IMG/VR virus record: IMGVR_UViG_2859810971_000006
Location: 1-34,243 of that record
Source of the DNA: a virus
Lineage: Duplodnaviria > Heunggongvirae > Uroviricota > Caudoviricetes
DNA length: 34,243 nucleotides
Strand: one strand, 5' to 3'
Position numbers and translations under genes: made by a program
Notes under the pieces: model-generated
What the model was told of the DNA's origin: nothing
The model's database searches: none
Seen by the model: the letters and a program-made list of their open reading frames with translations, nothing else
Part shown: positions 26,432-30,127 of the stretch, piece by piece
Position numbering within the stretch: position 1 is the stretch's first letter
Layout: the number at the start of each line of letters is the position of its first letter

Positions 26432-28873
26432 TTAATACAGGTTTCGCCACTTATCATCTTCCTGCAAACGCTGGTTCCGATAGAAGATACGCAGGCCTGC
26501 TCCTGACGAAATACTGCCGCCGCGAAGGAGTAAATCGACCTCTTTCTCGCTACCATCAAACCCTCTGGACTTCAGCTCATACACGAGCGGCTGTCGCTGA
26601 TGGTCTGTAATTCGCTGTTTGTAGTCTTTACACCGTTTCGGTTTAACCAGGTGTAACCTTGCTGCCAGTTCCCGGCGTTCTTTTTTGCTCATACTGTGCA
26701 GGTAATCGTGCAACTCCTTGTCATCCATGCGGGTGATATCCGTTCTGGTATCCCCATCAGCTGATTTGTCTTTCCCTTGTTGGTTCAAATTTTCAGCAAG
26801 GGGACAGTTATTGCCACGAGTCCAAGGGGCGCAAGCGCCCTGGTCGGCTGCCGCCTCCTGAATGTCAACGGCCTTACGAACCATTTTCCACTTCACCGCA
26901 TGAGTGCAGATCTTGCCCTCTGCAATGGGTGACCAGATGCCATAAATACGAATACCGTGATCGCCATAGGCGGTCGGCTCTTCGTTGATTTCATAAGCGG
27001 TTCTGATGAGGTGATATTTGCGGGGAACCAGTACGCCGCCCTGCTTCATGATGTAGGTGGCAAAACAGCCAGCATCAGCGGCAGCCAGGATGGCATCAAG
27101 GCGCGGGTTATCCAGTACCGGCGCACCTGCTTTTTTGTCCCCCTGTTGCCTTGCCGCCTGACCAGCCAGCAATCGCAGTTCACGGTAAGCCTGACGCCCC
27201 GGAATGCCAAAGAAGCGGAATTGCTGAACACGATGCAGAGACGCCCAGGCATTAACGTATTCGGCGTTATCACGCAGGGATTTACCCGTTTCCTTGCTGA
27301 TCTCGCCAGCCAGACCACGCCCGTCAATGTTCTTACTGATGTATTTCGCGATGTAGCTTGTTGGCGTACCTTTGCGCGGGTTTATCAGCTCAGACTTAAA
27401 GCGTGGTTCCGTGTTATTACCCAGCTCCTCGCGGTCTTCACGAATGGCAAACTTACGCAACAAAGCAGTAATGGCGCGGCGATCTTTTTTGCGCATAAAA
27501 CACAACAGGTGCCAGTGAACTGTACCGTCATGATGCGGCTCAGCCACCCGCACGCCATACCAGCGTAATCCGGCTTTGTGCATCGCCTTACGAAATGCAG
27601 CAAACATACCGACCAGATAATCACTGCTTTGTCTTACCGTCGCATTTGTCCAGGTCGGGTTGGGCCTGCCGTTATTTAGCGTGGAATGGAAACGTGACGG
27701 ACAGGTGATGGTGTAGAAAACGGCGCAGTCACCGCGCATTTCCGCGATAAGCTCCAGACCTTTAACACAGGCCATCATCTCATTGCGGCGATGCGCAGGG
27801 TTGCTGCTGCTGGCGTTTACCACGTCTTCCATATCCAGCGTGTCGCCGTCTTCGTTCACCAGTTCATAAGAACGGAAAAACTCCAGCGACTTACGGCGCT
27901 GCTCACGTTTATGCATCACGGCTTCATAGCTGACATAGGGAGATGCTTTTTTGCTGACCAGGCAAACAGCACGCAACTGCTCTTCCCGCCATTCGCAACG
28001 CATCTTCCATAATTTCCGATACCACCAGTCGGCGCATAACATACGCGCCAGCGAACCCGGAATGAGTTCATAAGGCACGGGTTTACGGCGGTTTCTTTTC
28101 CGACGGAGTTGCTCAAACGCAGGCGGGATAACATCCAGACGCAGGGTTTCCGCTGCCACCTTTTCCCATGTCTTGCGGATTTCTTCTGGCGTAACATCAT
28201 CGGTGGCATACAAATCGCCACAAGCTGTATCAAGGCACATGCTCATATGCGCAGCTACCAAGGTGGACAGGCGTTTCACCTGATCCTGACTCATTTCAGG
28301 CAGGATCAGCAGGCCGTCCAGCCCTTCATGGCTTGCCATAAAGCGAAAAGAAGTGGATAGCTGACTGTCGCGTACATGCTCCAGTCGTTCCAAGCATGGC
28401 TTAATCGTCTCACGCAAATAGCGGGAATAAGCCTTTGGCCTGCCCAGGCTGCTGAAGTATTTAATACGTTGCATCAGCGGCTTGCTGATATGGGAAGGCT
28501 GGGCGTTGACCTCCGCCAGAATGGCCATGTCTGGATTAAAACGCTGCTGCTCATGCGCCAGCTTTGCCCGGCTAATTAGCTTATCCTGCTCCATTTCGCG
28601 TTGGACAGGATCACGGGATTCATTAAAGAAATAACGCTCCCAGACCTGATCACTCAGTGCCTCGCGGCGCAGTTGTTCCTGCTCGTTATCGGCAGCGTAC
28701 AGAGTGATCAGGTTTGAAAGCGCAGAAACCGGCGCAACTTCCGCCGGGTCCAGATAAGGGTTAATGGCCTTTTTCGGGCTGTTCCATGAGAATGCTGCGG
28801 CGACCTCGTTAAAGCCGCTGCAGTTGTTCATATCAGCATGGCTCATGCACGCACTCCGTACACGACGGAACAA
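26432..28873 (-). CDS. A: Replication initiation endonuclease gpA (rolling-circle, HUH family)
   Basis: 813 aa; HUH-like motif ([12 protein letters not shown]) and the conserved [12 protein letters not shown] block shared with P2 A. Confidence 0.9.
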
Positions 28874-29262
28874 TCCACGCCACGCGAAGGATCAAATCCT
28901 ACCCAGCAGCGCGGCCCGGAAACAGCGATGATTTCTGTTGCAGATTTACTCTCACCAGCTGCCACGCCGATGCTGCGTTTTTCCTTGATGTAGTGGTGAG
29001 TAAAATTGCGATACAGCGAACGGATCAGGGATGTGTCACTGTTAGAAACAATGACCGGATGACCTTCAGATGATCGATGTTCAAGAACGGATGCCAGGTG
29101 ATACTGGTCATCTTCAGTGAAGCCATCAGTGTGATAGCCGGAAAACGTACCGTCATAAGGCGGATCGCAATACACCACATCCCCCGCCTTCAACATCGCC
29201 AGCGTTTCATCAAAGCTGGCGCAGATAAACGTTGCCCGCTGGGCTTTCTCTGCAAATGCGCG
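28843..29262 (-). pseudogene. dam: DNA adenine methyltransferase (Dam-like) 3' fragment, truncated by IS1
   Basis: VVYCDPPY (the DPPY motif of N6-adenine methyltransferases) followed by a Dam-like C-terminus; the reading frame runs into the IS1 end at 29263, so roughly the N-terminal half is missing. Confidence 0.7.
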
Positions 29263-29277
29263 GGTAATGACTCCAAC

Positions 29278-29781
29278 TTACTGATAGTGTTTTATGTTCA
29301 GATAATGCCCGATGACCTTGTCATGCAGCTCCACCGATTTTGAGAACGACAGTGACTTCCGTCCCAGCCTTGCCAGATGTTGTCTCAGATTCAGATTATG
29401 TCGCTCAATGCGCTGAGTGTAACGCTTGCTGATAACGTGCAGCTTTCCCTTCAGGCGTGATTCATACAGCGGCCAGCCATCCGTCATCCATACCACGACC
29501 TCAAAGGCCGACAGCAGGCTCAGAAGACGCTCCAGTGTGGCCAGAGTGCGTTCACCGAAGACGTGCGCCACAACCGTCCTCCGTATCCTGTCATACGCGT
29601 AAAACAGCCAGCGCTGACGTGATTTAGCACCGACGTAGCCCCAATGTTCGTCCATTTCAGCGCAGACAATCACATCACTGCCCGGTTGTATGCGCGAGGT
29701 TACCGACTGCGGCCTGAGTTTTTTAAGTGACGTAAAACCGTGTTGAGGCCAACGCCCATAATGCGTGCACTGGCACGACAT
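29278..29781 (-). CDS. insB: IS1 InsB (expressed as the InsAB' transposase by -1 frameshift at A6C)
   Basis: 167 aa; A6C frameshift motif in the insA/insB overlap (plus strand gtttttt at 29718-29724). Confidence 0.95.
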
Positions 29782-29975
29782 CCGACGCCATTCATGGCCA
29801 TATCAATGATTTTCTGGTGCGTACCGGGCTGAGAGGCGGTGTAAGTGAACTGTAGTTGCCATGTTTTACGGCAATGAGAGCAGAGATAGCGCTGATGTCC
29901 GGCAGTGCTTTTGCCGTTACGCACCACGCCTTCAGTAGCGGAGCAGGAAGGACATCTGATGGAAATGGAAGCCAC
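29700..29975 (-). CDS. insA: IS1 InsA
   Basis: 91 aa, Cys-rich N-terminus (CPSCSAT...CSHCRK). Confidence 0.95.
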
Positions 29976-30127
29976 GCAAGCACCTTAAAATCACCATCAT
30001 ACACTAAATCAGTAAGTTGGCAGCATTACCCGCAATGTGATTAAGTCCATTCAGGCGTTCACCGGGGCTTAATGGAACAGTCGCCGCAGCGCCATTAATT
30101 GCCATAATTCATATCCCCAAAACGCAA

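Follow-up and report, generated by a model that had tools for sequence, protein, structure and literature searches.

The classical adjacent deletions promoted by IS1 are those of the gal region, reportedly described by Reif and Saedler in 1975. In this element insA is succeeded by insB' in the -1 frame, slippage at an A6C motif gives an InsAB' transposase, and transposition is mainly replicative (PMC12428005). Where target site duplications (TSDs) are absent around insertion sequences, the usual causes are adjacent deletions, which may remove as little as 14 bp, and recombination between IS copies (PMC11708052). The prophage analysed here belongs among the P2/186-like elements in which dam precedes gene A, a set that includes the prophage of Escherichia coli C51 (at ybjL/rcdA), Salmonella phage RE-2010, and Klebsiella phages KP12 and 4LV2017. 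These share the gene order int-cI / apl-cII-fil-...-dam-A with the window, meaning the whole stretch of 34,243 nucleotides that was analysed, and the dam-A junctions of the phages are 95-97% identical to it in DNA sequence. However, in the copy of the window 1,528 bp of the early operon are missing, two IS1 elements are present, and the portal gene has a nonsense codon (Table 1).

Table 1. Features of the prophage early region and of the two IS1 copies, in window positions
Feature	Position	Strand	Remarks
Gene A (P2/186-type replication endonuclease, 804 aa)	26432-28846	-	intact
dam remnant	28843-29262	-	codons 147-285 and stop of a 285-aa D12-class Dam
IS1 copy 1	29263-30030	-	768 bp, intact
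IS1 copy 1, IRR	29263-29285		dam side
IS1 copy 1, insB' frame	29278-29781	-	
IS1 copy 1, insA	29700-29975	-	InsA of 91 aa
IS1 copy 1, A6C frameshift motif	~29718-29726		
IS1 copy 1, IRL	30008-30030		side of the DUF5347 remnant
DUF5347-family early gene remnant	30031-30105	-	codons 1-25 (MAINGAAATVPLSPGERLNGLNHIA); 100% to C51 residues 1-25
74-aa hypothetical early gene (PHROG 4312)	30128-30352	-	intact, 100% to C51 protein
fil (phage 186 Fil-type cell-division inhibitor, 98 aa)	30223-30519	-	PF10893
cII (CP76-family regulator)	30527-31031	-	PF06892; residues 3-169 of the 169 of C51 cII
IS1 copy 2	31032-31799	-	31024-31807 with TSD
apl/cox-like, first gene of the early lytic operon (67 aa)	31877-32080	-	100% to C51; position by synteny
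cI repressor (189 aa)	32226-32795	+	PF07022, PF16452
Integrase (350 aa)	33191-34243	+	100% to C51; stop codon is the window end

A deletion ending at both IS1 termini

Both insertion sequences have the hallmarks of IS1. Firstly, each is 768 bp long, with ends of the GGTRATG...CCAACTTACTGAT type, and 23-nt terminal arms that are 87% complementary. Secondly, thousands of E. coli records with an IS1 annotation match both copies at 99% identity or more. Thirdly, the slippery A6C motif TTAAAAAAC occurs at position 305 of the IS, and simulating the -1 shift yields an open frame for a 232-aa InsAB' in both copies. Fourthly, PF03400 (DDE_Tnp_IS1) is recorded on the IS1 gene calls in the precomputed Pfam annotation. 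With its full length, InsA, frameshift motif and InsAB' frame preserved, copy 1 is intact and potentially active. It differs from copy 2 by a single base (29775 A versus 31544 G), and the gap between these directly oriented copies is 1,001 bp.

Nevertheless, the two copies differ in their flanks. Copy 2, oriented like copy 1, is a simple insertion: GGTAATCA forms its 8-bp target duplication, at 31024-31031 and 31800-31807, and is present only once in the IS-free prophage of C51 (L001 7485-7492). Copy 1, by contrast, is bordered by aaatgcgcg on its left (29254-29262) and cgcaatgtg on its right (30031-30039). As these sequences differ, no 8- or 9-bp direct repeat is present there, as the sequence-only reading had recognised from the 8-mers aatgcgcg and cgcaatgt, and copy 1 lacks the 8-9-bp TSD of a simple insertion. 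This anomaly is explained by the deletion, and is no argument against the identity of the element as IS1.

On one side of copy 1, the frame of the dam remnant, with its DPPY motif retained, continues directly into the end of the IS. It had been proposed that the N-terminal half of this Dam-like frame was missing, and only residues 147-285 of 285 do remain (99.3% identical to the same residues of the C51 Dam). The match of the remnant to PF02086 (D12 N6-adenine methyltransferase) covers only profile positions 150-253 of 253 (E=2e-25), the part upstream of position 150 being missing, whereas the full-length C51 Dam spans positions 1-253. Judged by this profile coverage, the remnant is derived from a member of the D12 family and is not a complete enzyme. 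In D12 enzymes the AdoMet-binding motif is in the N-terminal half, ahead of the catalytic DPPY, and what remains here is presumably a dead C-terminal fragment. Nor does a full-length dam-like frame elsewhere continue it, Dam residues 1-146 being absent from the whole window in blastn and tblastn comparisons. On the other side of copy 1, the DUF5347 gene abuts the IRL at codon 25 with CGCAATGTG, and reads on into the IRL to form a 33-aa hybrid ORF (30004-30105).

Sizing the loss against an IS-free P2/186-like relative, as had been suggested, was possible with C51, in which the two flanks, one ending at L001 4963 and the other resuming at L001 6492, lie 1,528 bp apart in unchanged orientation. 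Hence IS1 copy 1 lies exactly on a deletion scar, in support of the sequence-only reading, the endpoints of the deletion coincide with the two IS1 termini, and no duplication surrounds them. Identity to C51 is 99.7% across the final 1.6 kb of the left flank (5 mismatches), and 99.8% across 1.0 kb of the right flank (2 mismatches). Relative to C51, the window has lost dam codons 1-146, DUF5347 codons 26-113, and three small genes in their entirety, which encode DUF3850, a DksA/TraR-like zinc-finger protein and DUF2732. The sequence-only reading had placed the loss between the 5' half of dam and the ORF at 30128; the dam end of this interval holds, but the far breakpoint is inside DUF5347, and the ORF at 30128-30352 is intact. 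As neither blastn nor tblastn located the missing 1,528 bp elsewhere in the window, a relocated or inverted copy of the segment was ruled out.

Both flanks are collinear with one C51-like region, and the divergence from C51 changes inside gene A, at ~27,600, away from the IS; this is therefore the internal deletion of a single prophage. That IS1 joined two different prophages was ruled out on the same grounds, as both flanks are 99.7-99.8% identical to one relative, and the boundary in divergence is 1.6 kb off in gene A. All four of the nearest relatives (98.3-99.8% identical) have a 3,492-bp span.

It could alternatively be supposed that nothing was deleted, either because the flanks are naturally adjacent in some phage lineage, or because the junction is an artefact of assembling a repeat-rich genome from long reads. 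The window differs from an independent Illumina/Logan assembly (ERR200328) by two homopolymer indels, so the record is not error-free, and the early regions of relatives are mosaic, spanning either 3,193 or 3,492 bp. However, all four IS1 junctions match that Illumina assembly base for base. Furthermore, dam is cut mid-domain and DUF5347 at codon 25, so both flanks stop within a gene. When 60 nt of each flank were joined artificially without the IS, this junction was matched contiguously in none of 5,426 complete E. coli genomes, 1,216 of which carry one or both flanks; hence flanks contiguous in an IS-free relative, which would have told against a deletion from the outset, occur in 0 of these 1,216. 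The reading without a deletion is effectively refuted. The small contig between the two IS copies in ERR200328 was recovered by an edge-partial cII look-up, and a gpI look-up towards the tail-fibre region of that assembly returned only unrelated E. coli contigs, gpI being ubiquitous.

Adjacent deletion and its alternatives

Transposase-driven adjacent deletion by IS1 is the best account of the scar at copy 1, and we put its probability at about 0.5. The locus has the features of such an event: the IS at the junction is intact, there is no TSD, and the flanks are collinear with sequences that lie apart in an IS-free relative. In this account, an intact IS1 would first have inserted in the early lytic operon (apl-cII-fil-...-DUF5347-DUF2732-zinc finger-DUF3850-dam-A). 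InsAB' would then have performed an intramolecular transposition, with one end of IS1 attacking a nearby AT-rich target in the same DNA. The outcome would be a classical adjacent deletion, in which IS1 stays in place, one flank is kept, and the other is swapped for the target sequence; the intervening 1,528 bp would be lost as a circle that does not replicate, and the initial target duplication would vanish. The anchor was probably the IRL-DUF5347 junction, with the IRR, now next to dam codon 147, as the moving end. We infer both the choice of this anchor and the route itself, transposase as opposed to recombination. Adjacent deletion is favoured by the absence of a TSD from copy 1 while copy 2 has one. 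The breakpoints all lie in AT-rich patches (30-40% GC versus a median of 47%), which fits the preference of IS1 for AT-rich targets that Zerbib et al. reportedly found in 1985.

A sister genome, GCA_001906345.1, bears on the question of which end moved. It differs from the window by 2 SNPs in 6.4 kb and has the same portal nonsense codon, and there the same IRR end of IS1 meets dam at a point 23 bp more upstream. It is thus the junction with dam that varies, which would be expected of repeated transposase-driven events from a fixed anchor, and this mildly favours adjacent deletion. Only the dam-side IS1 junction of this genome was retrieved, so the 23-bp offset may instead stem from a separate insertion into a hot spot; exact-protein look-ups with the 33-aa hybrid ORF, the 172-aa cII, Fil, a 79-aa ORF, cI and GpA did not return GCA_001906345.1. 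It is tempting, though on balance unlikely, that a single anchored IS1 has been nibbling at the operon, its IRL fixed at DUF5347 while its IRR jumped at least twice, successively or in parallel, into the same AT-rich patch of dam, L001 4963-4986 in C51. If it has, the two genomes would capture, in nature, the stepwise erosion of a prophage operon by repeated transposase-driven adjacent deletions of very short range.

The sequence-only reading had left the choice between adjacent deletion and inter-IS recombination undecided, and the data allow both, as the two routes lead to the identical final sequence and cannot be separated by sequence alone. In the second route, RecA-type homologous recombination would have occurred between two direct IS1 copies, one inserted in dam (target ...aaatgcgcg) and the other in DUF5347 (target cgcaatgtg...), removing one IS1 together with the 1,528 bp and leaving a hybrid IS1, a product that would look the same as that observed. 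This is a real possibility. The early region attracts IS1: copy 2 is already present 1 kb away in the same orientation, making a former third copy plausible, which counts against adjacent deletion, and in the unrelated E. coli WCHEC050613 this DUF5347 gene likewise harbours an IS1. Recombination between IS copies also often underlies the loss of TSDs (PMC11708052), and is common in IS-rich Shigella genomes (PMC8072062). Nevertheless, it requires two insertions and a recombination, rather than one insertion and one intramolecular event. Both sequenced isolates still carry copies 1 and 2 unrecombined, although these lie nearer to each other and have the same direct orientation. The junction 23 bp away in the sister genome would demand yet another independent IS1 insertion in dam, and the parental double insertion was not found in complete E. 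coli genomes. Searches of the 5,426 complete E. coli genomes, of IMG/VR and of GTDB species representatives likewise yielded no intermediate of an adjacent deletion, IS1 with a TSD at either breakpoint. Neither the window's own IS1 junctions nor that of the sister genome occurred in these collections, where the one find was an unrelated IS1 in the DUF5347 gene.

It is improbable that the scar arose in one step, with a new IS1 arriving alongside the deletion through insertion at a DNA break or aberrant transposition, and never having a TSD. An IS centred in a deletion without a TSD is a compatible structure, and TSD-less moves of IS5 and IS481 coupled to deletions or duplications have been directly observed and proposed to represent a separate route, but comparable cases involving IS150 were classed as adjacent deletions (PMC11708052). 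Moreover, IS1 is not known to use such a route, and the sequence does not call for one.

Condition of the prophage

The window is identical to GenBank CP026810.1, and the prophage occupies the site between ybjL and rcdA, as in C51. The neighbouring accession numbers belong to CDC Shigella reference genomes and the record is missing from the E. coli collection, which suggests a Shigella origin. It is a defective P2/186-like prophage, with a P2-type late gene set, a 186-type switch (int, cI, apl, cII, fil) and GpA in conserved order, and with Pfam matches to Phage_GPA, Phage_CP76, Phage_186_Fil and Phage_CI_repr. Of the 44 proteins of the C51 prophage, 39 were found by tblastn in conserved order; those unmatched were two cargo genes and the three genes of the deleted segment, with dam and DUF5347 partly matched. 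Gene A is 98.3% identical to C51 GpA across 804 aa (tblastn), with PF05840 (Phage_GPA) on its gene call, and its start overlaps the dam stop codon (ATGA).

Other damage to the prophage consists of the IS1 in cII and the portal nonsense codon, and CP026810.1 also shows apparent frameshifts in gpO and the tail fibre, which may or may not be real. Copy 2 parts cII from roughly its first two codons as well as from the early promoter, and splits the apl/cox-like gene from the rest of the operon. Four small early genes have apparently been lost, in the case of DUF5347 only in part, as codons 1-25 remain. Two polar insertions, copy 1 and the copy in cII, probably isolate gene A from the early promoter. 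Hence the combination of the 1,528-bp loss, two IS1 copies and the portal nonsense codon means that, to judge from its gene content, the prophage is very probably not inducible. The main use of these results is in annotation: the ORF at 28843-29196, as a seemingly dead dam fragment, should be called a pseudogene, and the prophage should be treated as cryptic, with an early operon broken twice by IS1, 1.5 kb lost, and a stop codon in the portal gene.

Comparison with described IS1 rearrangements

This is routine IS-driven prophage decay, a known phenomenon rather than a new kind of system, and adds a further documented case of prophage erosion by IS1 in an IS-rich Shigella/E. coli lineage. The 23-bp difference in the IS1-dam junction between close isolates is mildly instructive, and could serve the study of natural IS1 deletions.

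The locus shares several properties with IS1 adjacent deletions, as reviewed in PMC11708052: the IS is intact, one flank has been swapped for distant DNA in the same orientation, the DNA between has been lost, and there is no TSD. It differs from the classical examples in that the event is deduced from a natural genome rather than observed, and that the deletion is small (1.5 kb) and lies within a prophage. With recombination between direct IS copies, as in the long-term evolution experiment (LTEE) with E. coli B (PMC11708052) and in Shigella rearrangements (PMC8072062), it shares a single TSD-less IS standing between the outer halves of two sites; that route differs in needing a second IS1 that is no longer visible. 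A parallel within the same gene is the sister prophage of WCHEC050613, which also has an IS1 in the same orientation in DUF5347, with the IRL by the 5' part of the gene, no TSD, and the DNA on the IRR side deleted. However, that insertion is 90 bp away and of another IS1 isoform, and the IS1-associated deletion extends 22,309 bp to the tail tube gene, making it an independent event.

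Two IS1 copies and their flanks

The two IS1 copies differ by a single base (29775 A in copy 1, 31544 G in copy 2), and have at least 99% identity to copies in thousands of records. Each encodes a 91-aa InsA and carries the TTAAAAAAC (A6C) frameshift motif at IS position 305, with a simulated -1 shift producing an InsAB' frame of 232 aa. Both copies agree with the IS1 structure described previously (PMC12428005), and look functional as judged from these frames. The transposase genes point in the same direction as the phage early operon, such that the right terminal inverted repeat (IRR) of copy 1 faces the dam fragment, and its left repeat (IRL) faces the right flank. 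The copies are direct repeats 1,001 bp apart, and are unrecombined in either sequenced isolate.

Coordinates of the features around IS1 copy 1, of the genes lost relative to E. coli C51, and of the junctions in an independent assembly
Feature	Position or contig	Strand	Detail
Open frame (dam fragment)	28843-29262	-	translation, Pfam and alignment to Dam
IS1 copy 1, complete, 768 bp	29263-30030	-	23-nt terminal inverted repeats 29263-29285 and 30008-30030
First bases of right-hand flank	30031-30039		third component of region 28843-30039
IS1 copy 2	31032-31799	-	orientation as copy 1; 8-bp target-site duplication 31024-31031 / 31800-31807
Lost: dam codons 1-146	within C51 L001 4964-6491
Lost: DUF3850 gene	within C51 L001 4964-6491		PHROG 'RNA-binding protein'
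Lost: DksA/TraR-like zinc-finger gene	within C51 L001 4964-6491
Lost: DUF2732 gene	within C51 L001 4964-6491
Lost: DUF5347 gene codons 26-113	within C51 L001 4964-6491
IRR/dam junction	ERR200328 L006
IRL/DUF5347 and IS1-2 IRR/cII junctions	ERR200328 L024		1,054-bp contig
IS1-2 IRL/apl-side junction	ERR200328 L011

Copy 2 is bordered on either side by GGTAATCA, an 8-mer present only once in the IS-free relative E. coli C51 (NZ_CP127306.1), and is therefore a simple insertion. In contrast, the nine bases outside copy 1 (aaatgcgcg on the left, cgcaatgtg on the right) contain no duplication, in agreement with the sequence-only reading that its flanks are unrelated. The same reading described a Dam-like frame with a DPPY motif that abuts the IS end without its N-terminal half. 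The translation of this frame (RAFAEKAQ...DPPYDGTF...VRA*) indeed matches only positions 150-253 of the 253 in PF02086, the D12-class N6-adenine methyltransferase profile (E=2e-25), and its alignment with a 285-aa Dam spans residues 147-285 (99.3%). This Dam is an ordinary D12-class enzyme, and RE-2010-like and Klebsiella P2-like phages also carry it upstream of gene A.

Extent and origin of the missing segment

When window positions 28300-31031 were compared by megablast with 5,426 complete E. coli genomes, the window's own structure was absent from all of them, and many IS-free relatives matched both flanks in two pieces. In the best of these, C51, window 26001-29262 aligned to positions 1701-4963 of the prophage region (L001) and window 30031-31031 to 6492-7492, leaving 1,528 bp (L001 4964-6491) that are not in the window. 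This alignment to an intact relative gave the size that the sequence-only reading had left to be measured, and the lost gene content was read from the C51 annotation with Pfam and PHROG scans. The first 25 codons of the DUF5347 gene are retained (30031-30105), and run into IS1 to form a 33-aa hybrid ORF. The proposed IS1-linked deletion is hence supported, with its far breakpoint moved from the ORF at 30128 to the DUF5347 gene at 30031. A 3,492-bp span is common to the four nearest relatives (98.3-99.8% identical) and one of 3,193 bp occurs in some more distant relatives; were the ancestor of the latter type, the loss would be approximately 1,229 bp.

Neither the missing segment nor the Dam N-terminus matched anywhere else in the window, and an artificial IS1-less flank junction was never matched contiguously in the E. 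coli collection, with one or both halves found in 1,216 genomes. Hence neither of the observations expected to contradict a deletion, a continuation of dam elsewhere or contiguous flanks in an IS-free relative, was found. There were just five mismatches to C51 in the last 1.6 kb of the left flank, and two in the 1.0 kb of the right flank. Together, these sequence comparisons indicate an internal deletion within one prophage. A natural gene-order variant was rejected, as the IS-less junction was never contiguous in the collection, as was a join of two elements, since both flanks are close to C51 and the shift to higher divergence lies within gene A (~27,600), away from the IS.

Exact-protein look-ups showed identity of the window to GenBank CP026810.1, a 4.53-Mb chromosome with an accession in a block that papers assign to CDC Shigella reference genomes, and all four IS1 junctions recur base for base in ERR200328, an independent Illumina-based Logan assembly. 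The only two differences from ERR200328 are in homopolymer lengths, G9 versus G10 in the portal-DinI spacer (~25543) and C4 versus C5 at the gpO 3' end (~21702), leaving GpO at 273 rather than 277 aa in the window; both probably reflect indel errors of long reads in CP026810.1.

Routes to the deletion

The absence of a duplication, together with the coincidence of both deletion endpoints with IS1 termini, excludes that IS1 inserted into a deletion that was already there. Two classical routes yield exactly such a product (PMC11708052). Firstly, an IS1 already present at one breakpoint could have undergone intramolecular transposition, generating an adjacent deletion; we favour this route at a probability of roughly 0.5. 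Secondly, two direct IS1 copies, each occupying one breakpoint, could have undergone homologous recombination; this would leave the same final sequence, and is a possible if less favoured origin. No intermediate of either route was found in complete E. coli genomes, IMG/VR or GTDB representatives. One-step arrival of IS1 without a target duplication, or an artefact, is improbable.

The draft sister genome GCA_001906345.1 (contig LPSZ01000171) is of the same lineage as the window, with two SNPs in 6.4 kb; it shares the split of the portal gene and a Dam substitution specific to the lineage. The same IRR terminus stands at the end of its contig, where it meets dam 23 bp upstream of the window's junction, at L001 4986/4987 rather than 4963/4964 (…CATTACC/CGTATTTCCCTGAAAAAGAAATT CGCGCATTTG…; contig end L005 1-113 versus window 29239-29352). 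Therefore near-identical genomes differ in their dam-side junction, as would be expected from repeated transposase-driven events with IS1 anchored on the DUF5347 side, and another IS is documented to have made adjacent deletions down to 14 bp (PMC11708052). Recombination would demand yet another independent IS1 insertion in dam. However, a hot spot could have been hit independently, since every breakpoint falls within an AT-rich patch (30-40% GC; median 47%). A stepwise "nibbling" by IS1, seen in the comparison of the sister genomes and in keeping with adjacent deletion, has a modest probability. The sister genome's second IS1 junction was not recovered through exact-protein look-ups; its cI, cII, Fil and GpA products differ from those of the window, and the right-hand part of its prophage may differ too.

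Decay of the prophage and of its relatives

Host DNA (ybjC-grxA-ybjM-ybjL) extends to ~3,300, followed up to the int stop codon at 34243 by a P2-type prophage with a 186-type switch region, in the same integration site as that of C51. The early operon (apl-cII-fil-...-dam-A) is on the minus strand. Copy 2 with its target-site duplication (31024-31807) splits off the first codons of cII, so that cII, fil, dam and A are cut off from apl and the early promoter, and copy 1 with its deletion lies further down the operon. Hence the intact 804-aa replication gene A appears parted from its early promoter by two insertions. The portal gene gpQ (24420-25460, +) has an in-frame stop, Q145* (24852-24854; WFVQYG in C51, WFV*YS here), dividing it into 144-aa and 183-aa calls; this split is real, as it is common to CP026810.1, LPSZ01 and ERR200328. 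The prophage is very probably cryptic.

Tail-fibre gene H (12528-14212, -) is apparently split within a G-rich stretch into two overlapping frames, of 417 aa with an N-terminal collar domain and 168 aa with a glycine-rich domain; either a genuine frameshift or one more homopolymer error could account for this. Between the tail-fibre assembly and tail sheath genes, where many relatives have a Cin/Gin-type invertase with an invertible fibre segment, is a 394-aa Acyl_transf_3 (PF01757) membrane acyltransferase (10680-11864, -); it resembles a moron and may encode a surface-polysaccharide O-acetylase. The portal-dinI interval (25330-25848) is ~0.5 kb, versus two hypothetical genes (1,392 and 732 bp) in C51, an instance of variable cargo at a known P2 moron site. 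Past the window end, a tandem 19-bp unit, CTAACTTATTGTTTTTAAT, lies directly downstream of int by the attachment region (L010 ~6020-6110), and an ERR200328 contig ends inside this repeat. In another E. coli relative, GCA_012564605.1 (L015 5603-8864), gene H (352 aa) directly precedes cI, a ydcA-like gene and int, whose relative orientation is inverted; this suggests that its prophage underwent a large inversion or deletion.

Every component of the rearrangement is already known and its type is textbook. A parallel is the unrelated E. coli WCHEC050613 (NZ_CP019213.3), where an IS1 (L002 3285-4052) occupies the same DUF5347 gene, likewise without a target-site duplication and in the same orientation as copy 1. 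It is independent, being another isoform and lying 90 bp away, and its IRR side borders a 22,309-bp deletion that extends as far as the tail tube gene. Hence IS1-associated erosion recurs in this prophage family.
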